Shown in pieces: positions 26,668 to 49,526 of a stretch of 64,000 bases of DNA. Each line of letters starts with the position of its first letter. Position 1 is the stretch's first letter. The notes beneath the pieces were generated by a model, which searched no databases, had not been told where the DNA came from, and saw nothing but the letters and a program-made list of their open reading frames with translations. Where the stretch lies: contig JAUZSQ010000081.1 in assembly GCA_030949325.1 (NCBI GenBank), positions 227 to 64,226 of the forward strand, written 5' to 3'. The stretch comes from Sulfurovum sp. (GTDB lineage: Bacteria; Campylobacterota; Campylobacteria; Campylobacterales; Sulfurovaceae). The position numbers and the translations under genes are program-made.

Positions 26668-26737
26668 AATAGAAGTGCTTAAGAATTATGCCTTGTTTGA
26701 GTCTTTAGAAGAGAGTAAAAAATTAGGTTCTCTTTTT

Positions 26738-29242: not shown

Positions 29243-29256
29243 TGTACTGTAAACAA

Positions 29257-29276
29257 GGTTAGTTATTGAATTAATC
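29257..29276 (+). promoter_or_regulatory. Conserved 20-bp element upstream of pilin gene 1 (GGTTAGTTATTGAATTAATC)
   Basis: Identical to 47219-47238 upstream of pilin gene 2; function unknown. Confidence 0.6.
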
Positions 29277-29302
29277 TAATATAGCGTTACTAGGAGTTTA
29301 TA

Positions 29303-29662
29303 ATGTTAAAAATGAGACAAGGATTCACGATGATTGAATTAATTTTTGTGATAGTGATAATAGGGATATTGGCATCCATAGCCATACCTAAATTATCTGC
29401 AACGAGAGATGATGCTAAAGATGTACAAATATTGGCTAATGTTAAATTATGTGTTAATGATCTGATTAATGAATATGCAGTAAAGGGAAAATCGGTAGAT
29501 GTATCTAAAGGGGAACTGGTATCATGTCAAGCAGACGGAATACTACAGATAATAGATGCACCTAATGGGAGAGGTTATGAGATACTTATTAGTTATAAAT
29601 TGGAAGCTCAACCTCGAGTGCAAAAATCCTTTAATTATGCAGGTAATTTTGTAGTATATTAA
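29303..29662 (+). CDS. Prepilin-type N-terminal cleavage/methylation protein (type IV pilin/pseudopilin-like)
   Basis: RQG|FTMIELIFVIVIIGILASIAIPKL with Glu5; SD AGGAG. Confidence 0.9.
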   Translation: MLKMRQGFTMIELIFVIVIIGILASIAIPKLSATRDDAKDVQILANVKLCVNDLINEYAVKGKSVDVSKGELVSCQADGILQIIDAPNGRGYEILISYKLEAQPRVQKSFNYAGNFVVY

Positions 29663-29710
29663 AAGTTTTGATATGTAATTAGAAAAAGGTACTTTAGTAA
29701 AGCAATAAAT

Positions 29711-30646
29711 ATGTTAAATAAAATAGTCAATAAAATAAAGTTACGATATTACGATAGGGATAGTTGGAATTATTTTCTGATACTATTAAAACTAAAATAT
29801 AAAGAGCATAGTGCTGAGAATAAATCATTTTTATTTCTAAAGGTATTAAATCTAAAAATTCCTAGAAATAGATTTATATTCTTACTTAAAGCTTATGACC
29901 ATGCATTAAAACTTGTTGAATGTACTGATGCTGTTTTTACTATAGAAGAGAATAGAGTGTACATTAGTGTAGCAGAGTTAAAATTTGAAGTACAAACAGA
30001 AGAAGAGTTGTTTATACTCAAAGAAATATTTATTGATGGTGTGTATAATTTTCATCTTGTAGAAGCTATAGATAATTATATCCTTATTGACATAGGGATG
30101 AATGTTTCTTATGCTTCATGTTATTTTGTAAAAGTAAAGAAAATACCCCATATTATTTCTTTTGAACCATTTATACCTACTTATACACAAGCAAAAATGA
30201 ATATTCACTTAAATAATCTTGAGAATCGTATTGATGCTCGTAACTATGGATTGGGTAAGTCTGATAATGTTCTATCTGTAGAATATACTCCTGAGTTTAA
30301 AGGTCAAATGAACATGCATGGTACAGAGTATATTCGCTCAAGGATTAGGGAATCTAGCAGAGAAGATATTACGATTAAAAAAGCATTTGAACCTTTGAGT
30401 ATAATTGAGGAAGCTTATCCATCTAAAAGATTTATTTTAAAAATAGATTGTGAAGGTGCAGAATATGATTTAATAGAGGAAATCCCTCATGAGATGCTTC
30501 GTAGATGTGATGTGATTATGATGGAGTGGCATGAACAAGGTTCTCTATTGATAGAGTCATGGTTAAAAAGACATAGATTTATACTTATGTCATTTGAGCC
30601 TTTATCCAAAAGAGCAGGTATGATATATGCTATTAAAAGTAAATAA
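29711..30646 (+). CDS. FkbM-family methyltransferase
   Basis: IDIGMNV, ISFEPF, LKIDCEGAEY. Confidence 0.88.
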   Translation: MLNKIVNKIKLRYYDRDSWNYFLILLKLKYKEHSAENKSFLFLKVLNLKIPRNRFIFLLKAYDHALKLVECTDAVFTIEENRVYISVAELKFEVQTEEELFILKEIFIDGVYNFHLVEAIDNYILIDIGMNVSYASCYFVKVKKIPHIISFEPFIPTYTQAKMNIHLNNLENRIDARNYGLGKSDNVLSVEYTPEFKGQMNMHGTEYIRSRIRESSREDITIKKAFEPLSIIEEAYPSKRFILKIDCEGAEYDLIEEIPHEMLRRCDVIMMEWHEQGSLLIESWLKRHRFILMSFEPLSKRAGMIYAIKSK

Positions 30647-31430
30647 AACACATTATAGTTATATCATTACTTCTGGATGGTGGTCAATTGAAGAGGAGAA
30701 AGATGATAGACTTATAAAGTGTGGTGATGCACATATTAGGAGTTCTTCCTTTCATCAACTATGGACTAAGGCTATTGACAAATATACATTAGCCAAAAAA
30801 GTATATATTATTGATTCAAATGCACCTATTAAACCCAAGATAGATAGTCAGAATGAAGTATTATTTTCACTTTTAGAAAATGCAGGACATTCTACTAATC
30901 ATAGTGGTAAACTCTGTGGTGTTTCACGCGCACATCTTTTGGGTATGAGTTTAGCTCTTGTCAATGAGGTAGAGTATTGGGTTTATATTGAACAAGATGC
31001 ACTCATTTATGGCGATGGGATTATAGAAGAATGTATAAAGAAGATGAAAAAACCGTATATGTTTGGTAATGGTTGGGGAACTCCTCAACCTACGCAACAA
31101 TCCTTTATGATTATTAAAAGTGATGCTATCGCAAGTTTTATTCAAAAATTTTCTGCGATTAAAGCTACAGACAATGAGATAAGTCCTGAGACTAAGTTTG
31201 CGATAGCTACTTCACGATTTTTAGGCTTATTGCCTGAGTTCTTATTTAAAAATATTCATACTAAGAGTATAAAGAATAGAATATTATGGAGATTATTTAC
31301 AGTGTTTCAAGGTTTTGATAGCATCCCTTTTGGATATGGTCGGGTACGCCCTATAGATTTTTCTGATGAATACTTTTATTTTCAACATGGAAGCAAGACT
31401 GAACTTGATAAATATATATTGATTTCCTAG
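30627..31430 (+). CDS. Hypothetical protein, possible GT-A-fold glycosyltransferase
   Basis: YWVYIEQDAL (DxD-like); inside glycan locus. Confidence 0.45.
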   Translation: MLLKVNKTHYSYIITSGWWSIEEEKDDRLIKCGDAHIRSSSFHQLWTKAIDKYTLAKKVYIIDSNAPIKPKIDSQNEVLFSLLENAGHSTNHSGKLCGVSRAHLLGMSLALVNEVEYWVYIEQDALIYGDGIIEECIKKMKKPYMFGNGWGTPQPTQQSFMIIKSDAIASFIQKFSAIKATDNEISPETKFAIATSRFLGLLPEFLFKNIHTKSIKNRILWRLFTVFQGFDSIPFGYGRVRPIDFSDEYFYFQHGSKTELDKYILIS

Positions 31431-31443
31431 GCTTTATAAAACT

Positions 31444-32579
31444 ATGAAAAAAATCCTTCATATCACAAATTGGTATCCTAATAAATGGAATCATTTAGAG
31501 GGCTTATTTGTACAAGAACATTTCAAGCTTTTTTCAGAAGATAATCTTACACATTTGATACATGTAGAAGTACGAAATGGTCAAAAAGTTTTTGACTATG
31601 AATATATTAGATATTCAGAAGATGAAGAAGGCTATTATCTTTTAACGAAAATTACATCAACTAAATTATTAGAGTTACTAACAAGTCTTTTGCTCTTATG
31701 GGTACTTTTTAAATCCAAGTATAATAGATATGATGCTCACATTTTCATATAGCATATCCATTGTTAAGCTATTATTATTGTTGGAAACATATCATTAAAA
31801 GACCTATCTTAATATCAGAACATTGGTCTGCGTATCATTTTAACTTTTATATGCCTTGGGAGAGTAAAAAACTAGAAAGAATTAAGAAAATATTTAGACA
31901 AAATATTCCTATTATTACAGTCTCTAAAACCTTACTCAATGATATAGAAAACTTTTCAAATACTCAAATACCTTCTTCTATAATTATTCCTAATGTCATA
32001 GACCAAAGTACTTTTTTTTATAATAAAAAAGAAAATAATCAGGTAAGCACTTTTTTTTCTGTAAACCACATTGGAGAGATATTAAAAATCCTTTTCCTAT
32101 GCTAGAAGGCTTTGCTTTATTAGCATCTAATAATATTCCTTTTAGGCTTATTTTAGGTGGGTATGGAGATATTGTCGTAAAGATGAAAAATTTTGTAGAG
32201 ACTAAAGGCTTCTCTGATACAAGTAGCATTTATTGGAAAGATGGACAAAAAAGAGATAGCTTGTACTTTAGCCCAAAGTGATGGATATTTAATTGCTTCA
32301 AACTATGAGACCTTTTCTGTGGTATCTGCTCAAGCACTTTGCTGTGGTGTACCTATTATTGGTTCAAAACTTTCTGCAATAGAAGAATATGCAGACAAAG
32401 AGTGCTATCTATCTTTAGATGAAAATAATCCAAAGGATTGGATGATAAAATTACTTTATTTTATAAAGAATAAAAATATGTACAATCATAAGAATATTGC
32501 ATTAAAGGCTAATATTACTTTGGATAATCATCGTATTAAAACTTTATATAAGCAGACTTTAGAGAAATGGTTTGGATAA
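31444..32579 (+). CDS. GT4 glycosyltransferase (four fragments, frameshifted)
   Basis: HITNWYP, LISEHWS, SNYETFSVVSAQALCCGVPII. Confidence 0.75.
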
Positions 32580-33681
32580 TATGAAAAAGACTCAAATACT
32601 CATCATTTCTCCAGAAGCATGGGATACACATTTTGTATCTAAACACCATTATGCTATCACTTTAGCATCGGAAGGATATATAGTATATTTTTTAAATCCT
32701 CCTAATAATAATGTAAAGACCATAGAAATAGCTACAACAAAATATCAAAACCTCTACACTATGACAGACAACAAAGTAGCTAGAGGATTGAGATTTTATC
32801 CAAGGTTTGTTAGAGAATATATTCAAAGAAAGTGGTTAAAAAAAGTAGAGAGAAATATAGGTAAGCAATTTGATACTGTATGGCTTTTTGAGAATTCTAG
32901 GTTTTATGATATGGGGTTTGCAGATGATAGACTTAAAATTTATCATCAAGTAGATTTAAATCAAAACTTTCATAAAAAGAGGCTAGTTTGAGTGCTGATA
33001 TATGTTTTGGTACAAGTGATTATATAATCAAAGAGATAAAAAAATATAATCAAAAAACCTATAAACTAACCCATGGACTCTCACAAACTAAAGAGTCATT
33101 AGATATATATATGGAGACTTATTTTAAACAAAGAGAGATAAATGTAGTCTATATAGGAAATCTTGATATAGTAGTTTTTGGATATAGAGTTACTCAAATC
33201 TACTGATAACAAAGACATAGAGATGTTACTTTCCACTTAGTAGGCAGTTATAATAAAGATAAAAAAACTTTTACCTCTACTCAATAAGTTAGCAAATATT
33301 ATATGGTGGGGTAGGGTAGAGAGTGCTATTATACCCTCTATATTGGAGAGATGTGATATATCGCTACTGGTATATAGAGTCAATAGTGAGTATGATAAAG
33401 AGCAGTTGTCTAACCCTCATAAACTTATGGAGTATCTCTCTTCAGGCAAAGTAGTAGTAGCTACATACACAGATGAGTATAAAGATAAAAGATATTTATT
33501 GGAAATGTTAGATAACTCTAAAGATTATATACAAAAGTTTGATGAAGTAGTCAATAATTTAGCTTTTCATAACTCAAAAGAAAAACAAGCACAGAGAATA
33601 CACTTTGCCAAAGAACATTCTTATGAAAAACAAATACTAAAGATAGTTGAGTATTTAAAACGCTATAATCTAAAACTCTAA
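32572..33681 (+). CDS. GT-B glycosyltransferase, TuaH-like (frameshifted)
   Basis: SKHHYA, HGLS, YIGNL, PHKLMEYLSSGKVVV. Confidence 0.72.
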
Positions 33682-33695
33682 AGAGAAAGGTAGAT

Positions 33696-34946
33696 ATGAA
33701 GAGAAAACCAAAAATCATCATCTTCTTATACAACCGATTCTTTGACCCCCTTATTCAATCGAATTTTTGGCTTTATATAAATGCTTTATTAGAAGATGAA
33801 AATTCTTCCTATACTTTTCATCTGATTACTTATGAAAATAGAGAATTTCCTTTAACTAATAGAGAATTAGCATTAGTTGAAGCATGGAAAGGCAAAGGGC
33901 TTGAATACTCAGCTTTAGAGTGGCATCAAGGTAGTGGACTCAAAGAAAAGTTTATAGATGTCTTTCATGGTTTTAGGCTTGTGTCTAGGCTTCGTTTTAA
34001 AGGTTACAATCATATTATGACACTAGGTTCAGTAGCAGGAACTTATGCGTATCTCTATGCTGTTATTTTACGAATGAAGCTTTTTTTGTATCAGTTTGAG
34101 CCTCATAGTGAGTATGCTTTGGATAATGGTATGTGGGCTAAGGAGAGTAATCAGTATAAGATTTCTCATTATTTAGAAAAGAAATCAGCCTTATTTGCTA
34201 CGACGATTGCCTCAGGTACGGCTATTTATGGAGGAACGGATTAAAGAATATTTGGAAATCTTCTGCTGATTTTTATACGCATTCCAACGGTAGCTAACGA
34301 TAAAAAGTTTTTGTTTAATCAAAAACTACGAGAAGAAACACGAAAAAGTTTGGGTATATCTGAGGACGCTTGGGTGCTTTATTATCCTGGTAAGTTCGGA
34401 GACTTGTACTATAAAGAAGCCTTTGCATGGATGTATAAGTGGCTCAAAGAAGAAGAGCCTCGCCTACATATGCTTATTGTCACACCTCATAGTGATGGAG
34501 AAGTGAGAGGGATTTTTGATAGGGCAGAAGTATTAGCCAAAGACTATAGTATTATTCATACATCTTATGATGAGATACACAAGTATCATTGTGCAGCAGA
34601 TTTTGCTATTATTTCTGTGCCTCCTGCACCTTCTAAGAAGTTTATTTCTAATATAAAAGTAGGAGAATATCTTTGTGCTGGATTGCCTTTTTTGATTACT
34701 AAGGGTGTCTCCGAAGATTATATTTACGCCAAGCAAAAAGATGTCGGTGTGGTGGTAGATGATTTTGTAGAGCAAGATATAAAGAATGCATGGTCTGAGA
34801 TTAAAGACTATTTGGAAAGAGATAAAAGTACTCTGCGTAAGCATTGTCGTGAGGTAGGTTTGGCTTATCGAGGTTTTGATGTGTTGAATGTGAAGTTTAA
34901 AGAGGCATTAGTGAGTTTGACTAAGGAGAAAAAACATGCTAAGTAA
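33696..34946 (+). CDS. GT4-like glycosyltransferase (frameshift near 34240)
   Basis: LYYPGKFG, KVGEYLCAGLPF. Confidence 0.72.
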
Positions 34947-35900
34947 CAAAGCAATACTCATCACAGGAGGTACTGGCTCTTTTGGTCGTGCTTTTATTAA
35001 GTATATTTTAGAGGAGTATTCTGATATAGAACGTATTGTTGTCTTTTCAAGAGATGAGCAGAAACAGTTTGAAATGGCGTTAGAATTTTCTCCTAAAGTC
35101 TATCCTATTCGTTATATTTTGGGAGATGTACGAGATAAAGCACAGCTTTATAGAGCTATGCAAGATATAGATATAGTGATACATTCGTCTGCAATGAAGC
35201 ATGTAGGGGCATCAGAACAAAACCCCATGGAGTGTGTGAAGACCAATATCCTAGGAAGTCAAAATATTATTGATGTGAGTTTAGAAAGAGGTGTGAAGCA
35301 AGTTATAGCACTCTCAACCGATAAATCAGTCAATCCTAGCAATGTCTATGGGGCTTCTAAACTCATATTAGAAAAACTTTTTATTTCTGCTGATGCACAA
35401 AAGATGGAAGAAGATATAAAGTTTTCTATTGTTCGATATGGGAATATATTTGGAAGTAAAGGCTCAGTGATTCCCCTTTTATAAAACAAAAACCTACTGG
35501 GATATTATCTATTACCGATGAAAATATGACACGCTTTAGCATGACACTACAAGAGAGTATTGATTTGGTGGTGTATGCTCTTAAACATGCTGGGGAGGAG
35601 AAATATTTATCCCTAATGCCCTTCTTATAAAACTTTGATGTTGCAGCTGTCGCTCCCGATGCTTTTTGTAGGCTCATTGGTGTACTGCCAAGGGGAAAAG
35701 CTAGATGAGGTGTTTTTCTTAGTGTTGAGTCTTATAATATAGCGATCAAAGATAATATTTTATATTTTATGCCCTGATGGAACTAGTTGGAATAAAGAGA
35801 GAGGTATTTAGCAAGGACAAGTGCTAAGTTCATTGGAAGATGGAGTTGGGTATAATTCTAAAATAATATGATTTCTTATCCTTAGATAAGATACAAAACA
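34936..35900 (+). pseudogene. UDP-GlcNAc 4,6-dehydratase, PseB/FlaA1-like; 3' third carries many indels
   Basis: ITGGTGSFG, SRDEQKQ, HSSAMKHV, STDKSVNP, VRYGNIFGSKGSVIP, then fragmented MTRF..GGEIFIP. Confidence 0.7.
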
Positions 35901-35915
35901 CTTATTGAAGATTGA

Positions 35916-36912
35916 ATGATGATAAATACTGATACATCCATTTGTCTTATTATCCCATATTTTGGAAAATGGCCTGTATATTTTGAATTATTTTTATTTA
36001 GCTTAGAAAAGCAAAAGAATTTAGAAGTTATTTTATTTACTGATATCAACTATACATCTGAAATACCTAAAAATATGACTATAATAAACTTCACTATAAA
36101 TGATTTTAACATATTAGCATCAAAAAAAATTAGATATGGATATTAGGGCTATGTCTCATAGAACTCTATAAATTATGTGATTTTAGACCAGCCTATGGAT
36201 TAATATTTGAAGATTATCTCATGGATTAGTTATTGGGCATTTGGTGATTTAGATTTAATTTATGGTGATATATTTGAATTATTACCTCTGATTGGAAGAA
36301 AGATGTACTAACTGAGAGGAATGGCTATCTGTTCTCTAACAATCTTTAAAAAATGATTATTCTATGAAATATATATTCCAAAGAAGTAAATCGTATAAAG
36401 AATGTTTTTTATCTTCTAGACATCAAGCTTTTGATGAATGTTGGAATCTTTATACTATACTTAGAGGTAAAAAGTCTGATTCTATTCTTTGTATACATAA
36501 ACAAGAATCTTTTACATGGGTAATAAGACAAGAAGAATATAAAAAAAAATTGAAAGCATTTTCTAAAAAATAATAAAAAGAATCCATTCCAAAAGATGAT
36601 TATCTACATTATTGTAATGGAATCTTGACACAAAAAGATGGGTTATCTTTTCTTTATTATCATTATATAACAGAAAAAAGGACTTATTTATTTCATTTCC
36701 CTGATTGGAAAGATATACCAAATGAATTTTATATTAATAATACAGGATTCTTTACTGTAGATGAATTTTTAACATGGAAATACTTTCCTATTCTGGGTTT
36801 AAGATTTATAAAGTCATATTTAAGTTTTATGTATTATTTTCCCTTTATATATATGTGCACCATGAATATAATGCTATCTCCTCTCGTTTCACTGTATCCT
36901 TCCTACATATAA
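35916..36912 (+). CDS. DUF6625-like protein (multiple frameshifts)
   Basis: IIPYFGKWP..ILFTD; manual frame YKLCDFRPAYGLIFEDY..WAFGDLDLIYGD. Confidence 0.65.
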
Positions 36913-37694
36913 TGCTCAAAAATATATAGAAGAAGCTATTGAATCGGTGATAAATCAAACATACATACATTGGGAACTTATCATCATTAATGATGGAAGT
37001 ACAGATAATACAAGTTCTTTAATAGCGTCATTTAGCGATACGCGTATTATCTCTTTAACGCAAGAGAATCAAGGTGTAAGTCATGCTCGAAATAGAGGTT
37101 TAGATATAGCTAAGGGAAAGTATATTACTTTTTTGGATGCTGATGATGTATTGCCTAGGCAGAGTATAGAAAAGAGATATCTATATTTAGAACAAAATAA
37201 AGATATTGATATAGTAGATGGTATTATTAATGTTAAAAATAGTACTTTAGACAGAAGATATTAGAGTGTATAAACCTTATTATACAGGAGTATTGTTACC
37301 TCGTTTATTGGCTTTAGATTCTAGAGTATTTTTTAATGTATCTTATATGTTTAATCGTAATATTTTAGGTCAGCATAGATTTAAAGTAGGGATGACACAT
37401 GTAGAAGATTTATTATTTTATTTGCTATTATCAATACAAAAAAATATAAAATATGGATATATAGCAGAGAGTATTTATATTTATAGGAGTGGAAATTCTT
37501 CAGCTATGATGGATTTAGATGGTTTAGAAGAGGGGTATATTATATTTCTTCAGGAGATAAAAGGTAAGATATCAAATCTAGCTTATTTCTATTTAAAAGT
37601 AAAGATACTTAAAATTATGTTTTTGAGTTGGCTTAGCCATAAAGAGCTTATTTTAGGAATCAAGAGTTTATGGCATCTGTTAGTACAAAAGTAA
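36871..37694 (+). CDS. GT2 glycosyltransferase (frameshifted)
   Basis: PTYNAQKYI, INDGSTD, NQGVSHARN, FLDADD. Confidence 0.82.
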
Positions 37695-37706
37695 ATGTTG
37701 TAAAAA

Positions 37707-38786
37707 ATGAAACTCCTAGCCCTCCCAAAATACTCTAAAGAAGCACCCTCTAGTCGATATAGAGTCTATAATTATCAAAAATATTTTGCTAAAAATCATA
37801 TCAATATGACGATAAAACCATTTTTCTCTTCATCCTATTTAAATACTACAAATAAAATCATAAAAAGTCTTATTGTGATTTATTCTTATAGTAAAAGATT
37901 TTTTTTGTTAGTCTTTATATTAAGCTTTAAAAGGAGATATGCGTTAGTCTTAATAGAATATGAGTTGTTTCCCTATTTCCCCTCGTACTTTGAGTATTTA
38001 CTTCAAAAAAGAGGGATAAAGTATCTAGTAGATTATGATGATGCACTTTTTCATAAATATGAAGATTTTCCTATGCTTAAAGATAAAATAGCCAAAGTGA
38101 TGGGTTATGCTGATACGGTGATTGTTTGTAATTCTTATTTAGAAGCCTATGCCAAACTTTATCAAAAAGCAGTGTTTAAAATACCTACGGTAGTATCTGT
38201 AACTAGGTATAGGGAGAAGAAAAAAATGTATATTTCTAAAGATGAAACAACTTTTGTGATGGGTTGGATAGGTTCAAAAACCACGAGTCCTTATGTCTTG
38301 GCTATTTTGCCTGTGATGGAAAGAATATATCATAAATATAGCAATGTTATTTTGCATCTTGTAGGATTTGATGAGAGTATCTTGTCTAAAGAAGAAAAAG
38401 CATTAGCCTATATTAAAGTCATTGCATGGAGAGAAGATACGGAGATAGAGGAGATTTTAGCCTTTGATATAGGGATAATGCCTTTGCCTGATGATAAGTG
38501 GGCTAGGGGAAAGTGTGCTTTTAAGTTGATACAATATATGTCAGCCCAAAAAGCTGTGATAGCTTCACCTATAGGGATGAATACATCGCTTATCAAAGAG
38601 GGTATCAATGGTTTTCTACCTTCAAATGATGATGCGTGGTTTGAGGCTTTTAAAACACTATATTTAAGTCCAAACTTGAGAGAAACCATGGCAAAAAATA
38701 ATTTTGAGAAAATACAAAAGTTTTATAGCGATACTTTACAGGCAAGGCGTTATATGGAATTAATCAAGAGGATAAGTAATGTTTAG
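37707..38786 (+). CDS. GT4 glycosyltransferase
   Basis: SSRYRVY, DYDDA, GWIGS, KCAFKLIQYM. Confidence 0.88.
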   Translation: MKLLALPKYSKEAPSSRYRVYNYQKYFAKNHINMTIKPFFSSSYLNTTNKIIKSLIVIYSYSKRFFLLVFILSFKRRYALVLIEYELFPYFPSYFEYLLQKRGIKYLVDYDDALFHKYEDFPMLKDKIAKVMGYADTVIVCNSYLEAYAKLYQKAVFKIPTVVSVTRYREKKKMYISKDETTFVMGWIGSKTTSPYVLAILPVMERIYHKYSNVILHLVGFDESILSKEEKALAYIKVIAWREDTEIEEILAFDIGIMPLPDDKWARGKCAFKLIQYMSAQKAVIASPIGMNTSLIKEGINGFLPSNDDAWFEAFKTLYLSPNLRETMAKNNFEKIQKFYSDTLQARRYMELIKRISNV

Positions 38787-39831
38787 CTACCTCTTCCTCT
38801 ATCTCATCGCTTCATTCTCAGCCATGAGTATTGCCCACAGGACAGTGATTCGTTCGAGTACGCTAGTGTGGACTTTTATGGGGATGCTACTGACGATAAT
38901 GATTGGGTGGAGACATCATGTTGGGGGAGATTGGAATAATTATTTAAGGCGTTTTCGTGATATAGCAGATGCTTCTTTTACTTACACCATGGAACAATCT
39001 GATATGGGGTATCAATTACTTGTCTATTGGATGAATGCATGGGGATTTGATATTTATGCTGTGAATTTTCTCTCAGCTATGCTTTTTGTCACAGGACTTA
39101 TCGCTCTTTTGCGTAGAGAACTCAATCCTTGGCTAGGACTGACTGTAGCGATTCCTTATTTGATTATCGTGGTATCTATGGGATATACGCGTCAAGGGGT
39201 GGCTGTGGGGCTTGTGATGTGGGGCTTGGCTTCTTTGGATAAAAAGCAGTTTATTCGTTTTCTCTTTTTTATTGCTTTGGCAGCGTCTTTTCATAAATCT
39301 GCTGTACTGATGATAGCCTTTGGGATATTTAGCCATGGCAAAGGTAAATGGCTCAAAGCTTTAGCCGTATTGTTTGCAGGTATGGGGATATGGCTTTCTT
39401 TTGTAGAAACTGATTCTGCTGATTTATGGAAAAACTATGTCGAAGCCCAAATGCAATCCCAAGGTGCATTGATACGCGTGATTCTCAATTTTCTTCCTGC
39501 TTTGCTACTCTTGGCTTTTCGTAAACAATGGAAAATGTATTTTAATGATTATACTCTATGGTTTATGGTGGCTTTGGCCTCTATTGCTAGTGTGGTGGCT
39601 GTAAATTTTGCTTCTACAGCAGTCGATAGAATGGCTTTGTATTTTATTCCTATTCAAATCATCGTCTATGCAAGGTTGCCCTTTCTTGCTAGGCATCTGC
39701 TTTCTCCTAAAGTAACCACGATACTGATAGTGCTTTTTTATGGAGCAGTACTCTTGGTATGGCTCAATTACGCAGTCAATGCTAGGTATTGGCTACCTTA
39801 TAAGAATATGTTGTTTATGGGCTTGTTTTAG
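38779..39831 (+). CDS. wzy: EpsG-family polysaccharide polymerase (Wzy)
   Basis: GWRHHVGGDW..Y, GYTRQGVA, FHKSA, DRMALYF..Y.PY; about 10 TM. Confidence 0.82.
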   Translation: MFSYLFLYLIASFSAMSIAHRTVIRSSTLVWTFMGMLLTIMIGWRHHVGGDWNNYLRRFRDIADASFTYTMEQSDMGYQLLVYWMNAWGFDIYAVNFLSAMLFVTGLIALLRRELNPWLGLTVAIPYLIIVVSMGYTRQGVAVGLVMWGLASLDKKQFIRFLFFIALAASFHKSAVLMIAFGIFSHGKGKWLKALAVLFAGMGIWLSFVETDSADLWKNYVEAQMQSQGALIRVILNFLPALLLLAFRKQWKMYFNDYTLWFMVALASIASVVAVNFASTAVDRMALYFIPIQIIVYARLPFLARHLLSPKVTTILIVLFYGAVLLVWLNYAVNARYWLPYKNMLFMGLF

Positions 39832-41737
39832 ATGTGTGGTATTGTAGGATTCTTGGGCAAGAGAAAAGCACCCCAAGTAGTAGAAAAAATGCTTGAAACC
39901 CAAGCCCATAGAGGAAGAGATGGTAGAGGCATTTGGATGGATGAAATCGCCCAAAAATTTGTGCATTTAGGCCATAACCGTTTGGCTATCCAAGATACCA
40001 GTAGCGATGGACATCAGCCTTTTGTCTCTTCTTGTGGGGAGTATATCCTTGTCTTTAACGGAGAGGTTTATAATTTTAAAGTAATACGCATAGAGTTAGA
40101 AAAGTTAGGGTATGCTTTTGTTTCCCAAAGTGATACTGAAGTGATACTCTATGCCTATAAAGCATGGGGCATAGGCTGTTTGGAAAAGTTTATCGGTATG
40201 TTTGCTTTTTGTCTTGTGGATAAAAAGGCAAATAAAATGTATCTAGTGCGTGATAGGGCAGGGGTTAAACCCTTGTATTATTATGCCCTAGAGGAGAAGT
40301 TTATTTTTTCGTCTGAAATTAAATCTTTTCATAGACATCAAGGATTTACTAAGGTTTTGCATAAAGAAGTCTTGCCTTATTATTTCCAAATGGGATATAT
40401 TCCTGCTCCTCATAGTATTTTCAAAAACCTGTATAAACTTGAAGCAGGAAAGTATCTATGTTATGATTTGGCAAAAAATACGTATGAAAAGATAGTATAT
40501 TGGGAAGTCTCTAACTATTATCAAAAAGAAAAGTTTGATAATAGTGAAGCAGAAATACTCAATGACCTAGAGACGCTTCTCGAAGATGCTGTATCTCAGC
40601 GTATGGTCTCAGATGTCCCTGTGGGGATATTTCTCAGTGGGGGATACGATTCTTCTTTGGTCACTGCACTTTTGGCTCAAAATCACAAAGACTTACACAC
40701 TTTTACGATAGGATTTAATGATAAAAACTACAATGAAGCCCAAGATGCCAAGCAAATAGCTTCTTATCTAGGGACAAAGCATGAAGAATATTATGTCGAT
40801 AATAAAGACCTATTGTCCAATATAGAATCTTTGCCGTTTTATTATGATGAGCCTTTTGGAGACAGTTCTGCTTTGCCTACGATGCTAGTGTCCAAACTGG
40901 CAAGTCAAAAAGTCAAAGTGGTACTTTCTGCTGATGGTGGAGATGAGAGCTTTTGTGGTTATAGCAAATATTTCTTTTTGGAGAAGTTTTCTAGTGTTTT
41001 TAGCTCTCATTTTAGGAAAATACTCCTAAAACATACACTAAATAACATTTCGGCAAAACGCATGGGACAAATCAACAATTTTTTTGCCCAAAGCCTATAA
41101 GCAAAGTAATATCCAAGATAAATATCATAAATTTAAAAGAGCTTTTGATAGCGATTCTTTTGCACAAATGTTTTTGGAAGCTTCTTCTCCTGTGAGTCCT
41201 AATGAGGTCAAAAAACTATTGAAAGTAGCAGAGGATAGCCAGTATTTTGATAGGTTTAAGGCTGTGGAGAAATCACAGCTACTTGATACGATGATGAAAA
41301 TAGATTATCAAAGCTATTTGCCCGATGACATACTTACCAAAGTAGATAGAGCCACGATGTCAGCGACGATTGAAGGTAGAGAACCTCTGCTTGACCATCG
41401 TTTGATAGAGTATTTGGCAAGAGTGCCTATAGCGATTAAATACAAAAATAAACAGCCCAAATACTTAGCACGGCAAATTTTATATCAATATATCCCTCCC
41501 AAACTCATAGACAAGCCCAAAGTAGGATTTCAAGTGCCTTTACAAGAGTGGCTCACCCATGACCTTAAATACTTGCTAGAAAAATATTTGGATACTGCTA
41601 AAATAGACGATGAAATATTTGATAAATCTGAGATAGAACGCATCAAAAAATCCCTCTACGCAGGAGATGTACGAGAGGTCAATAAAATATGGTTCATACT
41701 CATGTATGAAATGTGGAAGGAGAAATGGTTTGGCTAA
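39832..41737 (+). CDS. asnB: Glutamine-hydrolysing asparagine synthase-like amidotransferase (frameshift near 41085)
   Basis: MCGIVG Ntn Cys, LGHNRL, FNGEVYN, LSGGYDSS, SADGGDE, KVDRATM. Confidence 0.9.
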
Positions 41738-42862
41738 AACACAGGCTAAAACCCTAGCTATCGTCCTTAATACGTCATGGAATATCTACAATTTTCGTAT
41801 AGGATTGTTAAAGGCTTTACAAGATGAGGGCTATAAAATCATAGCCATTGCACCAAGAGATGAATATTCTCATAAATTGGAAGCGTTGGGCTTTAGTTAT
41901 CATGATATTAAGATGAATAACAAAGGCACAAATCCACTAGAAGAGTTGAGGCTTTTATGGCGTTTTTATAGGCTGTATAAGCAGATAAAACCTGATGTAC
42001 TTTTGCATTATACAATTAAGCCCAATATCTATGGTTCTTTAGCAGGGGCAGGGCTCAATATCCCTATGATTTCCAATATCTCTGGTTTGGGTACAGTATT
42101 TTTAGATGAGGCTTTTTCTTCCAAGGTTGCACGGTGGCTTTATCGTATCGCACTCAAATCTGTGCCTAAAGTCTTTTTTTCAAAATAATGAAGATGAGAA
42201 GCTATTTATGGATTTGGGTTTGATAGCGTCTAACAAAAGTGAAGTACTCGCAGGTTCAGGTATCAATACGCAAATTTTTATGCCTATACAAAAAGCTCCC
42301 AATGAGCATATCACTTTTTTTGTTTATTGCACGATTGCTTAGAGACAAAGGTTTGATGGAATATGTAGAAGCATCACAGCTTTTATCCCAAAAGTACCCA
42401 GTAAAATGCCATATATTAGGTGCATATTATCCAAACAATCCTACAGCCATCACAGCAGAGGTTATGCACAAATGGGAAGCAGACGGAGCTGTCGAGTACT
42501 TGGGGGTGAGTGATGATGTAGCTTCTCATATAGCCAAAGCTGATTGTGTGGTATTGCCCTCTTATCGTGAAGGACTATCGCGTGTATTACTAGAATCTGC
42601 TTCTATGGAAAAACCTCTCATAACGAGCAATGTAGCAGGATGTAAAGAGCTAGTAGATGAGGGGAGTAATGGCTATTTATGTGAAGTAAAAAATAGCTAT
42701 TCTCTCTTTATCGCTATGGAAAAGATGTATCATTTAAGCCATGAAGAACGAGAAGAAATGGGAAAAAGAGGACGAGAAAAAGTCATAAAAGAGTTTGATG
42801 AGAAATTAGTGATTGATAAGTATAAAGAAGCTTTAGCCAAAATACTTCATCATCAAGCGTAA
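41730..42862 (+). CDS. GT4 glycosyltransferase, PglA/WbpU-like (frameshift near 42180)
   Basis: NFRIGLL, YTIKPNIYG, PSYREGLSRVLLE. Confidence 0.85.
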
Positions 42863-43996
42863 AGGGCGTAAGAGAGGATAGAGAAATCTTAAGTAGGAAG
42901 GCAGTTGTATCCATTTGAAATCGTCGAACTTTGCTGTAAAAAGTCCAAACCATAGTACACGCATTTTATCTTGATATTTTTCTCGCATAGTGCATAATAG
43001 GATGAGATGATAATAGCTCTTGGGAGGGGTATTGCTTCGTTGAAAGTCAATGAGTATGCTTGTGAGTTTAGCTACCTTTGTGTCTTGATGTATAAAGTCG
43101 TGTATCTCTTGTGGTAGAGGAGAATCTAAGAGTGTATGTGAGAGTGAGAGACTCAGCAGTACGATACGGTAGATACCCAAGGCTTTGGCATCTGCTAAGA
43201 GAGCATCCCATGGTATAGGATAAGTAACTCTAAGTGAACGGTCAATATCACAAACCCATGACAAGCGTTCAAAAAGATGTTTACTTCCATGCAGACAAAG
43301 ATAAAGAAACTGTTGTTTAAAAGCTAAGGTAGGTAAGTCATAGCTAGGGGTAGGTACAAAGGATATATTTTTCCATAGTTGCTCTTCTTCCCAAGATACG
43401 GCATAATTTTGGGAGAGTAATTTCCAATGTATTTCTATTAATATACTTTTATCAGGTGTATAAAATCCTATGACATTGACATAAGAAATAAAGGTTTTTT
43501 TTGTAGCCTCAGTCAAAGGAAGTTGAGGTATATAGCCTTCTTTTTTCATCATCCTAATCATACTTTGCTTGTCTCTTATATGAATCAGTATATCTATATC
43601 TCCAAATTGACGTAAGGTGAGGTTACCATAGAGAGTATATGCCAAAGCAGAACCTTTTAGAGCCAAGACAGGAAAGTAATGTGTTTTAAAGAGTGTGACT
43701 AGCTGTACAAGATGCGAAGTCATTGCAAGGTTTCGTTGTATGATATGTGTATAATAGGGTTTGAGTACTCTACATAGGCTATGCTTGGGTACGATAGCTT
43801 TGAGCGTGGTATAAAGTAGAGGCAGTACGGCATGTTTATAGGCTAAGTCTCTTAGCACAAGAGGGTCTATATGGCTATCATTTAGCATCGTTTTAATCGT
43901 ACTTTTATCTTCACTAGAGAGTAAGGATTTGCAACAATAGAGTAAAAGGATACGTTCATTGGTATTTTGATTTTTCATAATCATGATTATACTCAA
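42833..43996 (-). CDS. Nucleotidyltransferase family protein (NTP_transf_5-like)
   Basis: LALKG..LY....RQFGDIDIL, IEIHW, HGSKH..RLSWVCDI. Confidence 0.8.
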   Translation of the reverse strand: MSIIMIMKNQNTNERILLLYCCKSLLSSEDKSTIKTMLNDSHIDPLVLRDLAYKHAVLPLLYTTLKAIVPKHSLCRVLKPYYTHIIQRNLAMTSHLVQLVTLFKTHYFPVLALKGSALAYTLYGNLTLRQFGDIDILIHIRDKQSMIRMMKKEGYIPQLPLTEATKKTFISYVNVIGFYTPDKSILIEIHWKLLSQNYAVSWEEEQLWKNISFVPTPSYDLPTLAFKQQFLYLCLHGSKHLFERLSWVCDIDRSLRVTYPIPWDALLADAKALGIYRIVLLSLSLSHTLLDSPLPQEIHDFIHQDTKVAKLTSILIDFQRSNTPPKSYYHLILLCTMREKYQDKMRVLWFGLFTAKFDDFKWIQLPSYLRFLYPLLRPLRLMMKYFG

Positions 43997-44033
43997 TTTA
44001 GTGTAAAATATTCAAAATACTTAAGGGAGTACT

Positions 44034-44729
44034 GTGTTTCTCTATCAACCTACTTCAGGATATTGTTATAATAGTGATTCGATTTTTTTGTATCAGTTTA
44101 TCTCTAGATTTAAGCCCAAAGGTACATTATTGGATGTAGGTTGTGGTGTAGGGATTATCTCTTTACTCTTAAGCCGTGACTTTAAGATTGAGACGAGTAT
44201 TATTGATAAGCAAGAAAGTATGCTTAGATATGCTAGACATAACTATCAGCTCAATCATTTAGTCACCCAAAGTTACTTAGGGGATTTTAGTCAATTTCAA
44301 ACGCAGGAGCGTTATGATTATATTATTTCCAATCCTCCTTTTTATGATGTAAATGTACAACAGAGTCAAAATATACATCTCAATACGGCACGTTATGCAC
44401 AGCATTTACCCCTAGAAAGCTTTATTCAAAATGTCAAAAAACCTCTGAGTCCTAGAGGATGGTTTATTTTTTGTTATGATGCCAAACAGATAGATAGGGT
44501 TTTGGTTATACTTAAAGCACAAGGACTAAATCCTGAGAAAATACAATTTGTACATTCCAAACTCGAAAGAGACTCAAAGTTAGTGATGGTATCAGCACGG
44601 AATAATTCTAAGTCTATGACACAAGTATTAGCCCCATTCATCGTCTTTGATGAAGCCAATCACTATAGAACAGAGGCACAAAAAGCACTAGATGATGCCC
44701 ATACACATAGTATTAAAGGAGATTTTTAA
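44034..44729 (+). CDS. tRNA1(Val) A37 N6-methyltransferase-like SAM-dependent MTase
   Basis: YQPTSGYCYNSDS, LDVGCGVG, ISNPPFY, ARY. Confidence 0.8.
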   Translation: MFLYQPTSGYCYNSDSIFLYQFISRFKPKGTLLDVGCGVGIISLLLSRDFKIETSIIDKQESMLRYARHNYQLNHLVTQSYLGDFSQFQTQERYDYIISNPPFYDVNVQQSQNIHLNTARYAQHLPLESFIQNVKKPLSPRGWFIFCYDAKQIDRVLVILKAQGLNPEKIQFVHSKLERDSKLVMVSARNNSKSMTQVLAPFIVFDEANHYRTEAQKALDDAHTHSIKGDF

Positions 44730-44730
44730 G

Positions 44731-45105
44731 ATGAATGTTTTATCCAAAGAGGGATATGATTTTAGGTTTGATAGTAGTGCTTGTGAAGCCTGTGGTGGAC
44801 ATTGCTGTACAGGAGAGAGTGGTTACATTTGGACAAAATATCCTGAGATACAAAATATTGCAACCTTTGTTAACCTTTCTGTAGAAGAGTTTGCTACAAT
44901 GTACCTAAGAAAAGTCAAACATCGCTACTCTCTTATTGAAAAACAGATTGCACCCAATAACTATGCTTGTATATTTTTTGATGAGAGTATAAAACGCTGT
45001 ACCATTTATCCTGTACGACCTCTTCAGTGTCGTACATTTCCATTTTGGGAACAGTATAAACATGAGGAAGAAGAGGTACGTCAAGAGTGTCCAGGAATAC
45101 TATAG
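44731..45105 (+). CDS. YkgJ-family cysteine cluster protein
   Basis: CEACGGHCC, CIFFD, CTIYPVRPLQCRTFPFW. Confidence 0.88.
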   Translation: MNVLSKEGYDFRFDSSACEACGGHCCTGESGYIWTKYPEIQNIATFVNLSVEEFATMYLRKVKHRYSLIEKQIAPNNYACIFFDESIKRCTIYPVRPLQCRTFPFWEQYKHEEEEVRQECPGIL

Positions 45106-46334
45106 TCATATTATTGTTAAGTCTAAGTCTTTCTTTTTTCACACTTCATGCCAAAGATATGCCACTGAGCGAAGATGAACTCATCATCCGAGGTATTTTT
45201 TATGATGAATATCATTTATATAAAAATAGCTACAAGGTCTATAAGAAGCTTTTTGATGAAACCCAAGCAGAGGTTTATCTCTTGAAGGAAGCGACTTCGG
45301 CACTACTAGCCCAAGAGTATATTGTACAAAGTATTAGCCGTCTGAAGGACTGGACGCGTAGGCATAATGATACTATTGAAGTACAACGGCTTTTGATTCC
45401 TTTATACCTTACAGCACGACAAGTAAACAATGCCCAAATAGAAGCAGAATTATTATTGAAAGACTCTCAGGAAGTACTTGATTTCGATTTGGCTTCCAAT
45501 GCTTTTTTGTACGCAGGTAATGTGACAGAAGCCTTAGACTTGCTACATAAAATATATAAAAAGATGCCCCAAGAATCAGTATTATTACGCATAGCTGAAA
45601 TTATGGATGAGTTTATAGGAGAACGGATTAAGGCGATTCAATTACTTGAAATGCATCGTCGTATGCATACGGTGAGTTCCCCATTGTATGAGAAGCTTTT
45701 GCTATTGTATCAAAAAGAAAAAGATATAGAGGGTATCTTTAGTATGTATAAAATGATGTATGCCCAAGATAAGCAAGAAGAATATCTGCATCAAATTATT
45801 GATGTGTATGTGTATAAGCATCATATGAAAGGGGCTATTGACTTCTTGGAAAAGGATAAAATAAAATCCGAACTTTTGTATCAACTTTATAAAATAGAGA
45901 AAGAATTTGTCAAAGCAATTTCTTTAGCAGATACCCTCTATAATATAGATAAAAATGCCAAATGGATAGCCGAAAAGGGCGTATTGATTTTTGAAAATGC
46001 CAAAGATAAAAATGACAAAAAAATGATAGATGATGTCTTGATGTATTTGGAAAAGTCTATTTTACTAGGTAATGACGATAGTATTTATCTGAACTATTAT
46101 GGCTATACGTTAATTGATAAAGAGATTAATATACCTAAGGGTATGAAGATTATCCAAGATGCCTTAATACAGCAACCTGACAATACCTATTATTTAGATT
46201 CTCTAGCATGGGGATATTATAAAGAAGGGAACTGTCAAAAGGCTTATAATTTGATGAAACGTGTCGTAGCAGAAGAGGGCTTAGTCGAAGAAGAAATTAA
46301 GGAACATTGGTCTGCGATTAGGGACTGTCAATAA
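45087..46334 (+). CDS. Secreted TPR protein
   Basis: Signal peptide; YLNYYGY, QPDNTYYLDSLAWGYYK TPR motifs. Confidence 0.75.
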   Translation: MSRNTIVILLLSLSLSFFTLHAKDMPLSEDELIIRGIFYDEYHLYKNSYKVYKKLFDETQAEVYLLKEATSALLAQEYIVQSISRLKDWTRRHNDTIEVQRLLIPLYLTARQVNNAQIEAELLLKDSQEVLDFDLASNAFLYAGNVTEALDLLHKIYKKMPQESVLLRIAEIMDEFIGERIKAIQLLEMHRRMHTVSSPLYEKLLLLYQKEKDIEGIFSMYKMMYAQDKQEEYLHQIIDVYVYKHHMKGAIDFLEKDKIKSELLYQLYKIEKEFVKAISLADTLYNIDKNAKWIAEKGVLIFENAKDKNDKKMIDDVLMYLEKSILLGNDDSIYLNYYGYTLIDKEINIPKGMKIIQDALIQQPDNTYYLDSLAWGYYKEGNCQKAYNLMKRVVAEEGLVEEEIKEHWSAIRDCQ

Positions 46335-46338
46335 GTTT

Positions 46339-46347
46339 TGATATAAT
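46339..46347 (+). promoter_or_regulatory. Extended -10 box (TGaTATAAT) upstream of trpC
   Basis: Exact TGnTATAAT about 30 nt before ATG. Confidence 0.5.
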
Positions 46348-46376
46348 ACCTCAAATTATTAAATATGGGAAACTCA

Positions 46377-47171
46377 ATGGCACAAATTTTAGATGATATT
46401 ATCAGACAAACCAAAGCAGACTTAGAAAAAAGAAAAATAGATTTTCCTATGGAATGGTTAGGTCGTTCTTTGGCTTTCAATCCTTTTGTTCCTAAAGATG
46501 TACAATCAGCACTGCGTTCAACAGAAGAAAACCCCTATCGTATTATTGCCGAAATCAAAAAGGCTAGTCCTTCCAAAGGGGTTATCCGTGAAGATTTTGA
46601 CCCTATGACGATTGCACAAGCCTACGAAAAAGGTGGAGCAGACTCCCTCTCTATTTTGACAGAACCCCACTTCTTTCAAGGAGATAAAGAGTACTTGGGT
46701 ATGGTACGCCGTTATGTCAATTTACCACTACTAAGAAAAGATTTTATCGTAGATAAATATCAAATCCTTGAAGCCTTGGCTTTTGGTGCAGATTATATTT
46801 TACTCATTGCCACGGCACTCACACGCAAAGAACTCAAAGAATTACATGATTATGCCTTGCATTTAGGCTTAGATGTCTTGGTCGAAGTACACAATAAAAT
46901 AGACCTTGTTAAGACGATTTTTACAGGAGCAGATATGATTGGTATTAACCACCGTAACCTAGAGACTTTTGAAATGGATATGAACCTTTGCTCTAAATTA
47001 ATCCCACTCATCCCAAACGGTAAAATTATCGTAGCAGAATCAGGTATCAATAACCATGAAACGGTAGTAGAATTAAATAATATGGGTGTAGATGCTTTTT
47101 TAGTAGGAGAACATTTTATGCGCCAAGATGATATGACTCAAGCAGTGAAGGATTTAAAGTACGGTAAGTAA
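46377..47171 (+). CDS. trpC: Indole-3-glycerol phosphate synthase
   Basis: [39 protein letters not shown]. Confidence 0.96.
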
Positions 47172-47218
47172 ATTATATTTATAATGTATAATTAAGTATA
47201 ATTAGATATTATTATCTT

Positions 47219-47238
47219 GGTTAGTTATTGAATTAATC
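47219..47238 (+). promoter_or_regulatory. Conserved 20-bp element upstream of pilin gene 2
   Basis: Identical to 29257-29276. Confidence 0.6.
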
Positions 47239-47262
47239 AAAAATGTGTTATAGGAGTTAGTC

Positions 47263-47543
47263 ATGGACAAAATGAGACAAGGTTTTACAATGATCGAACT
47301 TATCTTCGTTATTGTAATAATAGGGATTTTGGCATCTGTAGCTATACCCAAATTGACAGCCACCCGAGATGATGCAATAGATACTGCATCAAAGCGAATA
47401 TACGACTATGTATTGATAGTATTATTAATACTTATACCGCAACAGGGATTGGTATTGCAAATATTGTACAGAGCAATAATATAGCCTGTACCGAGGGAAA
47501 TAAGGATGGAGGAACGCTTAGTACTTTCTTGGGATGGGGATAA
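47263..47543 (+). CDS. Second prepilin-type protein (1-nt deletion near 47390; corrected C-terminus KANIRLCIDSIINTY..ACTEG)
   Basis: RQG|FTMIELIFVIVIIGILASVAIPKL; corrected frame aligns with pilin 1 (ANVKLCVNDLINEY). Confidence 0.82.
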
Positions 47544-47648
47544 TCAGGAGATAGTAAAGATTAGGAGGTGAGTTATCCAATAATGATTTAGTAGAATTAA
47601 CCTGCACTATTTAGATCTGCAAGAGTCGTACGCTAGAAGAGCATAACG

Positions 47649-49526
47649 CTACTCTTCTATATAGTTCTTCAGTTTTCGTCCTACTTTAGGATGTTTGAGC
47701 TTTTTAATCGCAGAGGATTCTATTTGTCTGACCCTTTCACGGGTGACGGAGAGTTCTTTGCCTATTTCTTCTAGTGTTCTATCACTTTCATCTTCTAGTA
47801 ATCCAAAACGCATACGAATGACAGCTTTTTCTCTTTCATTGAGCTGGTCTAAGACTTCATCAATTTGATTATTGAGGTCATCTTTGAGTACGACATCAGT
47901 AGGACTGAGCGTGGTTTTGTCTTCGATGAAGTCACCAAATCGTCCATCATCTTCATCCCCTACAGGTGTTTCCAAGCTCACTGGTTCTTTGGTAATTTTA
48001 ATAACATTTTTTACTTTATCTACAGAAAGACCTACTTCTTCGGCAATGGTATCTAAATCAGGTTCTTTTCCTGTCTCTTGTAAGTGCTTACGGATGATTT
48101 TATTGATACGGTTAATCGTTTCAATCATGTGAATAGGAATACGAATGGTTCTTGCTTGGTCGGCAATCGCTCGTGATATGGCTTGACGTATCCACCATGT
48201 GGCATAGGTAGAAAATTTATACCCTTTTTCATATTCAAATTTATCCACGGCTTTCATGAGACCGATATTTCCTTCTTGAATAAGGTCAAGGAAAGGCAAT
48301 CCACGGTTGGTATAACGTTTGGCGATAGAGACAACGAGTCTAAGGTTAGACTTTGCCATGCGTGTTTTGGCTATTTCTGATTTGGTCTTACCTTGACGGA
48401 TTTGTCCCAAAATATCTTGAAGCTTTTCTTCACTTAGGTCAAAACCACTCTCACTGGCTTCCCTGGTTTCAAAGAGTTTTTTGATTTCTACATAGGTACT
48501 GACCATGGTAGTCTCTGGTACAGAATCTATAATATCATTTTTGTCCATAGTAGTAATATTAGAAAGTATTTTTTGATGATTGTCTTTGAGCATATCATTA
48601 AAGAGAGGGAGCTTATATTCTAGTCTTTTAAGCTCTTTATCGAAGCTATCGTCAGAAGTAAGGGCAGTTTCCATCGCTTTGACCAATTCATTGATAAGTT
48701 TTGATGTAGGTCCCAAATCCAAAAGAGACTTTTTGAGTAAATCTTTTTTGAATGCTACTTTGAGACTCTCATGCAAGACAATCAAGGTATCACTTTCTTC
48801 TTCTAGGAAGATATCTAATTCTTCTCTGGCTTTCATCCAATCTTTTTTACATTTTTCTAATTGTTTAAAGCTATCGATGACTTGTTTGACCCTTTTGTCA
48901 TCTTTGGGTGCTTTTTTGACTGTAGGTTTGACAGGTATTTTGACGATAGATTCGTCTGTTGATTCACTGCTACTTTCCTCTTCAGTCGAGACTTTTTCAT
49001 CTTCAAAACTCTTAAAAAGCTCTTTGACACGTCTTTCTCTGTTGAGTAAAGGTTGTCTATAGTTGATGATATATCCAATGAGATAAGGAACAGAGCAGAT
49101 AGCATCAATAATAATATCTTCACCTTCTTCAATACGCATAGAGAGATTGACCTCTTCTTCTTTGGTTAGAAGAGGGATTTTACCCATTTCTCGTAAATAC
49201 ATTCGTACAGGTGAATCTGAGCGACTCCATTCAAGAAGTTCTTTCTCTTTATGTAAGTCAAACTCATCTTGGTCTTTATTGTCAATGAGTTTTTGTCTTA
49301 CATCCTTACGTCGTTGTACTTCTTTGGCTGTGAGATACTTGGCATAGTCAGAGGCAGAAATGATTTCTATTTTTGTAGATAAAGAAAATTTAAGTACTTT
49401 TTTGACTTGTGCGAGTGTAGGTTGTCTATTTAACTCTTTAGCAATATTTTCTAAGGTAACAACATCACCTTTTTTCTTAGAGATAAAGAGTGCTTCTATG
49501 CTTTTCATACTGTCTTTTACTGCCAT
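47649..49526 (-). CDS. rpoD: RNA polymerase sigma factor RpoD (likely start MAVKDSMK)
   Basis: [46 protein letters not shown]. Confidence 0.97.

Follow-up and report, generated by a model that had tools for sequence, protein, structure and literature searches.

The locus described here raises the question of why two dispersed pilin genes, whose synonymous sites have drifted to near saturation, share an identical non-coding sequence, and what that sequence does. The window (the whole 64-kb stretch of Sulfurovum DNA that was analyzed) contains exact copies of the 20-mer GGTTAGTTATTGAATTAATC at 29257-29276 and 47219-47238, which end 26 nt before the ATG of pilin 1 (29303) and 24 nt before the ATG of pilin 2 (47263), in agreement with the preliminary description of this DNA. 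The features that surround the two copies are as follows, with the two -10-like boxes read from the sequence.

29245..29250, + strand: weak -10-like sequence TACTGT, 6 nt before the pilin 1 motif
29256..29277, + strand: predicted leader hairpin of pilin 1, AGGUUAGUU-AUUG-AAUUAAUCU, 9 bp with two G.U pairs; folds in its UTR context; covariance model score 53.4 bits
29292..29296, + strand: Shine-Dalgarno sequence AGGAG of pilin 1, 6 nt before the ATG
29303..29662, + strand: pilin 1, an intact 119-aa type IV prepilin (MLKMRQG/FTMIEL...), flanked by genes for a GT2 enzyme and an FkbM methyltransferase
47207..47212, + strand: -10-like sequence TATTAT, 6 nt before the pilin 2 motif, with a TATAAT also present at 47197-47202
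47217..47240, + strand: predicted leader hairpin of pilin 2, UUGGUUAGUU-AUUG-AAUUAAUCAA, 10 bp; folds in its UTR context; covariance model score 52.5 bits
47252..47256, + strand: Shine-Dalgarno sequence AGGAG of pilin 2, 6 nt before the ATG
47263..47484, + strand: pilin 2 as assembled, a 73-aa open reading frame whose N-terminal 41 residues are homologous to pilin 1 and whose frame is lost after ...RDDAIDTA
47388..47543, + strand: C-terminal part of pilin 2 in another frame, IKANIRLCIDSIINTYTATG...ACTEG... up to a stop codon, homologous to pilin 1 residues 43-62 (E 9e-6)

The two copies of the motif are identical at 20 of 20 positions, whereas the 40 nt immediately 5' of the motif agree at 18 of 40 in an AT-rich background, and the abrupt loss of similarity that had been described upstream of the 20-mer is thus confirmed. 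Within the 12 codons of GFTMIELIFVIV, two are identical, ten differ synonymously and none differ non-synonymously, so that the earlier count of 10 of 11 non-Met codons is exact. Across the 34 aligned codons of pilin 1 and pilin 2, just 15 third positions agree, which is no better than the 18 of 40 found in the unrelated upstream flanks, whereas the motif is invariant. The argument that a non-coding 20-mer conserved better than third codon positions is under selection therefore holds. The window contains no further match to GGTTAGTTATTGAATTAATC with three or fewer mismatches, and none of 100 shuffled sequences reached two matches. Furthermore, the whole genome (2.53 Mb, 36.6% G+C) contains no match outside of the two window sites.

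The protein encoded downstream of the motif has the G/FxxxE cleavage-methylation motif and hydrophobic helix of a type IV prepilin, and pilin 1 matches both PF07963 (29.4 bits) and TIGR02532 (33.1 bits, cut-off 16.3). The genome also encodes a prepilin peptidase (Peptidase_A24, contig C22) and PilB- and PilT-like ATPases. While both of the paralogues first recognized are real, the genome has four that carry the leader, as two further copies are located on contig C84, both of them frame-broken. All four copies possess a complete leader, AGGAG, an ATG and the full N-terminal domain. The similarity AN..LC....IN.Y...G that had been reported at the C-termini is likewise present, but the copy in pilin 2 is out of frame with its ATG.

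Several of these genes are found among genes for glycan synthesis. Pilin 1 is held within a glycan locus (26191-32105) made up of a flippase, a GT2 enzyme, the pilin, the FkbM methyltransferase and more glycosyltransferases. The closest relative of pilin 1, with 59% identity, is found in another Sulfurovum MAG (L003), where the hairpin is kept with a G-C pair in place of the G.U pair of this genome. In that MAG (L003 1-3357), the pilin is likewise flanked by a flippase-like gene, a GT2 gene and a homologue of the glycosyltransferase at 31444-32105. A glycosylation-like gene block on contig C84 is bracketed by the two pilin genes that carry the leader there and by an intact AFTMVEL pilin (10.7-19.9 kb); in this block, GT2-like, acetyltransferase-like and DegT-like aminotransferase genes, along with genes for 614-aa and 647-aa proteins, were recognized by eye from the translations.

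The broken reading frames require comment before the leader is considered. A survey of 315 ORFs from 400 kb of a high-quality genome of the same genus revealed that 45 of 204 orthologues (22%) are frame-broken in this assembly, often more than once. These include essential genes that we take, from their sequences, to encode ATP synthase alpha, IleS, GatB, GuaA, LeuA and PurH, and the RNase J gene is itself split. Examples in the window include a flippase (26675-27481/27535-28215), a glycosyltransferase (31444-31752/31761-32105) and breaks at ~13671-13676 and 15767-15783. Only 5 of 20 break junctions are located at homopolymers. The assembly-wide breaks are probably uncorrected indel error, the break in pilin 2 is probably assembly noise, and the same probably applies to a T2SSE/PilT-family ATPase match (C78:6769-7293) that contains an internal TGA stop and an open frame of just 184 aa. 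The pilin copies contain three breaks in ~1.4 kb as compared to ~1 per 4 kb overall, a roughly threefold-or-more excess that is uninterpretable. Because 22% of conserved genes are broken, the breaks in pilin 2 and in the C84 copies are not readable as pseudogenes or as phase variation, and a pseudogene, phase variation and a programmed frameshift were all set aside for pilin 2 in favor of assembly-wide indel noise. Exact-product look-ups for pilin 1 and pilin 2 identified no independent assembly that carries either product. Frequent indel errors make any pseudogene or phase-variation reading from this genome unsafe without the reads.

When the 20-mer is written as RNA, eight of eight positions pair (G1-C20 to U8-A13), two of them as G.U, around an AUUG loop. 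The C84 copies have AGGTCAATTATTGAATTGATAC and AGGTCAATTAATGAATTGACAC at the equivalent place, i.e. GTCAATT-N4-AATTGAC. All four copies of the genome fold, with 8-10 bp in the window and GUCAAUU/AAUUGAC or GAU on C84, and a compensatory change from U-A to C-G distinguishes the window hairpins from those of C84. Conservation of the hairpin was followed through 42 related loci, which belong to Sulfurovum, Nitratifractor, Sulfurimonas, Sulfuricurvum and unclassified Campylobacterota MAGs; a hairpin was counted when it had a stem of 6 bp or more and a loop of 4 nt and ended 18-32 nt 5' of the ATG. As a joint MAFFT alignment of all hairpins offset the Sulfurimonas-type sequences by two columns, covariation was counted on gapless, loop-anchored alignments of two subgroups. 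In the Sulfurovum type (n=20), 97.9% of cells are paired and double-sided changes occur in five of seven pairs, while slid registers pair at most 54%. In the Sulfurimonas type (n=11), 98.5% of cells are paired and double-sided changes occur in four of six pairs, with 44% for the best slid register. For each type, 0 of 500 shuffles reached the observed score. RNAalifold, applied to the full-leader alignment with no structure supplied, returned the same single helix with the linker and Shine-Dalgarno sequence unpaired; AGGAG is invariant in this alignment. The stem is of low stability (-2.9 kcal/mol for the 20-mer; consensus folding term -5.2 kcal/mol). The hairpin is thus kept by compensatory changes, and it is structure rather than sequence that is conserved on the sense strand. 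No Rfam 15 family matched in a cmscan of 28900-47700 (E<=1), which returned only two unrelated sub-threshold hits elsewhere. A terminator or attenuator was rejected, as the leaders contain no terminator-like site and no consistent U-tract.

The pairing pattern also distinguishes RNA from DNA. Across the seven stem pairs of 23 unique Sulfurovum-type hairpins, there are 135 Watson-Crick pairs, 22 G.U pairs, no A.C pairs and four others. The outer stem pair is most commonly G.U, and pairs 3 and 4 pass through the A-U, G.U, G-C series typical of RNA helices. When all loci were examined with strand-symmetric detection, 20 G.U pairs were found versus 7 A.C pairs, with the latter mostly at the outermost position, and the hairpin was found in 24 of 37 pilins when read in the sense direction as compared to 15 of 37 when read antisense. 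An asymmetry of this kind would not be expected of a protein-bound DNA palindrome, and the 22 G.U versus 0 A.C indicates that the element is a sense-strand RNA.

The hairpin is also specific to one pilin family. The 24 sense-strand hairpins are those of the 37 first-in-cluster GFTMIEL pilin genes, for which dinucleotide shuffling yields a mean of 3.5 and a maximum of 9. Hairpins before the downstream AFTMIEL pilins of relatives are at background (6 of 45), and the element is absent upstream of the other prepilin genes of this genome. A covariance model limited to the leader (from 2 nt 5' of the stem up to and including the ATG, free of further coding sequence) matches 72 of 101 genomes of the genus, including 43 of 50 high-quality ones. 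Nearly all matching genomes have exactly one strong match, while this genome has four and one other has three. In 29 of the 29 loci fetched for the best model matches, the motif is directly 5' of a GFTMIEL pilin gene. A loose hairpin scan of this genome gave 15 matches, compared to a shuffled expectation of 8-19, and a Shine-Dalgarno sequence and start codon follow only those at the four pilin copies. A wider regulon was rejected, since the 20-mer search (three or fewer mismatches), the loose scan and the covariance model all found nothing beyond the four pilin copies here. The hairpin is therefore specific to this pilin family, single-copy in most genomes of the genus and present four times in this one. 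The suggestion of a shared regulator or RNA-leader site for a pilin regulon consequently survives as an RNA leader but is not supported as a regulon site, given that the element precedes only four paralogues of one family. The proposed scan of the genome and its relatives recovers a pilin-specific hairpin, while within this genome the exact 20-mer occurs at two sites only. Some pilin genes in Nitratifractor-like and other MAGs (L011, L014, L015, L017) are without the leader hairpin and have a different, conserved palindrome, (TA)ACCAT-TTN-ATGGT(TA), further 5' at 35-57 nt before the ATG, which may be an operator or an alternative hairpin.

The position of the hairpin relative to the promoter offers insight into where it would be found in the transcript. 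In 27 of 31 promoters, a -10 hexamer (TATACT, TATAAT, CATAAT, TAAAAT) precedes the first paired base at a distance of 7-9 nt. From this spacing, transcription is predicted to begin 0-2 nt 5' of the stem, as a rule at the AG of AG/GUCAAUU, and it is from the -10 spacing alone that the hairpin is predicted to form the 5' end of the transcript. Consistent with such a start, the blastn similarity of the window to the pilin genes of relatives begins with the first motif base (window 47219). The -10 boxes of the window copies (TACTGT, TATTAT) are poorer than those of relatives, and it is possible that pilin 1 is transcribed by read-through from the upstream glycosyltransferase gene (stop at 29240-29242). 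An E. coli-type -35/-10 scan found nothing at pilin 1 and is uninformative for these promoters. In many same-genus major-pilin promoters (L059-L065, L098-L125), TTGACATTTTT is found 9-11 nt 5' of the -10 box, which is too near for a normal -35 element, and it is often present as a pair of direct repeats spaced by one helical turn. This repeat is also found before the second pilin gene of the cluster, and a second promoter class has TTTAAG instead. The TTGACA element is present in none of the four pilin copies of this genome.

Taken as a whole, we think it somewhat probable that the 20-mer is the DNA of a 5'-terminal RNA hairpin on the major type IV pilin mRNA, one that stabilizes the message against 5'-end-dependent decay; the stabilizing function is one that we infer. 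The proposed unit would consist of a -10 box, a 7-9 nt spacer and a 6-10 bp stem with a loop of 4 nt, then 12-20 nt of A/U-rich linker followed by AGGAG and the ATG. The stem-loop would form the first ~20 nt of the mRNA for the MxxMRxG/FTMIEL pilin family in Sulfurovum and related Campylobacterota, with a predicted start site 0-2 nt 5' of the stem. Pairing of the 5' end is proposed to shield the pilin mRNA from RppH and RNase J, which would produce a long-lived message for a very abundant protein. This proposal is drawn from a sense-strand, pilin-specific hairpin at the predicted 5' end, from the presence of RNase J in the genome (TIGR00649, 515.7 bits, contig C11), where no RNase E/G was found, and from the precedent of vacA in Helicobacter pylori described below. 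Under the same proposal, purifying selection on both arms and on the loop would have kept the two window copies identical, while the synonymous sites of the coding regions drifted to saturation.

The main rival is that a dedicated trans-acting factor, whether an RNA-binding protein or a small RNA, docks at the RNA hairpin to adjust how the pilin mRNA is translated or degraded. This reading is compatible with the stabilizer model, and we regard it as a possibility of lesser weight. Within the genus, the loop is conserved nearly to the extent of the stem (18 of the 23 unique Sulfurovum-type hairpins have AUUG, and the last G is invariant), and the Sulfurimonas-type loop, NAGN, has an invariant A and G. 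Such conservation hints at sequence-specific recognition, since a purely structural cap needs none. Additionally, the stem is too weak for a strong structural block, and a factor bound 12-20 nt from the Shine-Dalgarno sequence could affect initiation. However, the loops differ by clade (AUUG, NAGN, AGUG), their conservation within the genus may reflect shared ancestry, and no candidate factor was found; none of the loops contains GGA, so they are not CsrA sites. A more specific proposal is that the AUUG-loop hairpin is the recognition element of a post-transcriptional pilin regulator in Sulfurovum and its relatives, with the four paralogues as co-regulated alternative major pilins, at least two of them beside glycosylation genes; we consider this doubtful.

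It is very unlikely that the motif is instead a double-stranded DNA operator, an inverted repeat at ~+1 to +20 to which a dimeric repressor of pilin transcription binds. One C84 copy does contain a perfect palindrome (GTCAATT-N4-AATTGAC), the position over the predicted start site would suit a repressor, and both arms change together across species. The window copies, however, match as DNA at only 6 of 8 positions, and TTAGTT and TCAATT half-sites coexist in one genome, so that a single protein must read both equally. The stem sequences vary freely between species while pairing is kept, and the 22 G.U versus 0 A.C described above, with G.U the commonest outer pair, also argues against an operator.

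The preliminary description had alternatively proposed a recombination site for dispersed solo-pilin cassettes. In this reading, the motif would be the boundary of a moving or converting pilin cassette, or the relic of an insertion-sequence end, and some observations are in keeping with it. Similarity, both among the paralogues and to relatives, sets in abruptly at the first base of the motif (in a blastn comparison of the window with the pilin genes of relatives, at query 320, equivalent to window 47219), there are four dispersed copies here versus one in most relatives, and pilin 2 occupies a junction unique to this genome. There it stands alone between trpC and rpoD (window 47172-47648), which are adjacent and convergent. 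When this site was compared with relatives, as had been suggested, seven were found to have trpC followed by homologues of contig C41 genes (39.1-39.6 kb, 49.1-49.4 kb), with rpoD ~13 kb away in two of these. Since trpC has C41 homologues as its neighbors in relatives, the trpC-rpoD junction is specific to this genome or to this assembly, and the junction with its pilin paralogue is either a rearrangement breakpoint or a misassembly. A recombination feature is nonetheless highly improbable. The element is single-copy before the resident major pilin gene in most of the 72 genomes, no further copies are found anywhere in this genome, no transposase or recombinase ORF is present between trpC and rpoD, and no recombinase or transposase adjoins the element. 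Furthermore, none of the four copies has the incomplete 5' end of a silent cassette, and G.U covariation is not expected of a recombinase site. An insertion-sequence end relic or a MITE was also rejected on the basis of four copies that all precede pilins, mostly one copy per relative, and no extra ORF at the pilin 2 locus. Finally, a promoter of the sigma-54 (-24/-12) kind that drives pilA in Pseudomonas, Geobacter or Myxococcus can be practically dismissed. The motif does start with GG, with a TG 10-11 nt later, and its distance to the ATG would allow for a leader of ~20 nt. However, GG and TG are one base too close together to fit GG-N10-GC, no GC is present, and relatives conserve neither of the two dinucleotides. 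Furthermore, the RpoN DNA-binding domain (PF04552) was not found in this 93%-complete genome, and a sigma-70-type -10 box is present upstream at a fixed distance.

The leader is a compact cis-acting RNA motif for which covariation offers good support and for which Rfam 15 has no family. It marks the major type IV pilin gene in a large group of uncultured sulfur-oxidizing Campylobacterota from hydrothermal vents, sediments and symbioses, and thus offers a simple pointer to the expressed major pilin among many prepilin-like genes. Classical regulators are few in this phylum, and the motif suggests that pilus production there is controlled post-transcriptionally. Although this leader had not been described, it belongs to a known class, the 5'-UTR stem-loops, and is ordinary in that respect.

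The arrangement of the pilin genes resembles that of Neisseria pilE/pilS, in that one genome contains several dispersed pilin paralogues with a constant N-terminus and a variable C-terminus. A promoter, ribosome binding site and 5' coding region are missing from pilS copies but present in each of the four copies here. None of the four looks like a silent cassette, because the leader, Shine-Dalgarno sequence, ATG and N-terminus are all complete, and no recombination-associated sequence was seen. The flaA mRNA of Campylobacter jejuni has a leader hairpin that is bound by CsrA, and CsrA sites present GGA in the loop. The flaA and pilin leaders are alike in having a hairpin near the Shine-Dalgarno sequence on the mRNA of a major surface-filament subunit, in Campylobacterota. 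A CsrA/RsmA site was rejected for the pilin leader, however, as GGA is found in none of its loops (AUUG, AAUG, GUUG, NAGN, AGUG). Escherichia coli ompA and Bacillus subtilis aprE and ermC possess 5'-terminal stabilizer hairpins with few unpaired 5' nucleotides, which hinder RppH and 5'-end-dependent RNases. The pilin leader is similar to the ompA type in that its hairpin is at the (here predicted) extreme 5' end of the mRNA of a very abundant envelope protein. An important distinction is that the ompA, aprE and ermC leaders are longer, with GC-richer and more stable hairpins, whereas the pilin leader has an AU/GU-rich stem of 7-8 bp and a conserved loop.

The closest comparison is provided by the H. 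pylori vacA mRNA, in which a stem-loop at +4 to +30 raises the steady-state level 2-6 fold and lengthens the half-life, both of which fall when the stem is disrupted (Amilon et al. 2015, PMC4843948), and for which the authors propose that the stem-loop shields the transcript from RppH and RNase J (PMC4843948). Both systems are found in the same phylum, with RNase J-based decay without RNase E, and both feature a single short stem-loop a few nucleotides from the transcript start (predicted in the case of the pilins) with base-pair-preserving substitutions. The two hairpins share no sequence similarity. The vacA stem-loop is located 80 nt before the ribosome binding site, whereas the pilin hairpin would occupy ~+1-3 to +20, at 12-20 nt before the Shine-Dalgarno sequence. 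Finally, conservation of the vacA stem-loop is within one species, while that of the pilin hairpin extends across Sulfurovum, Sulfurimonas and Sulfuricurvum.
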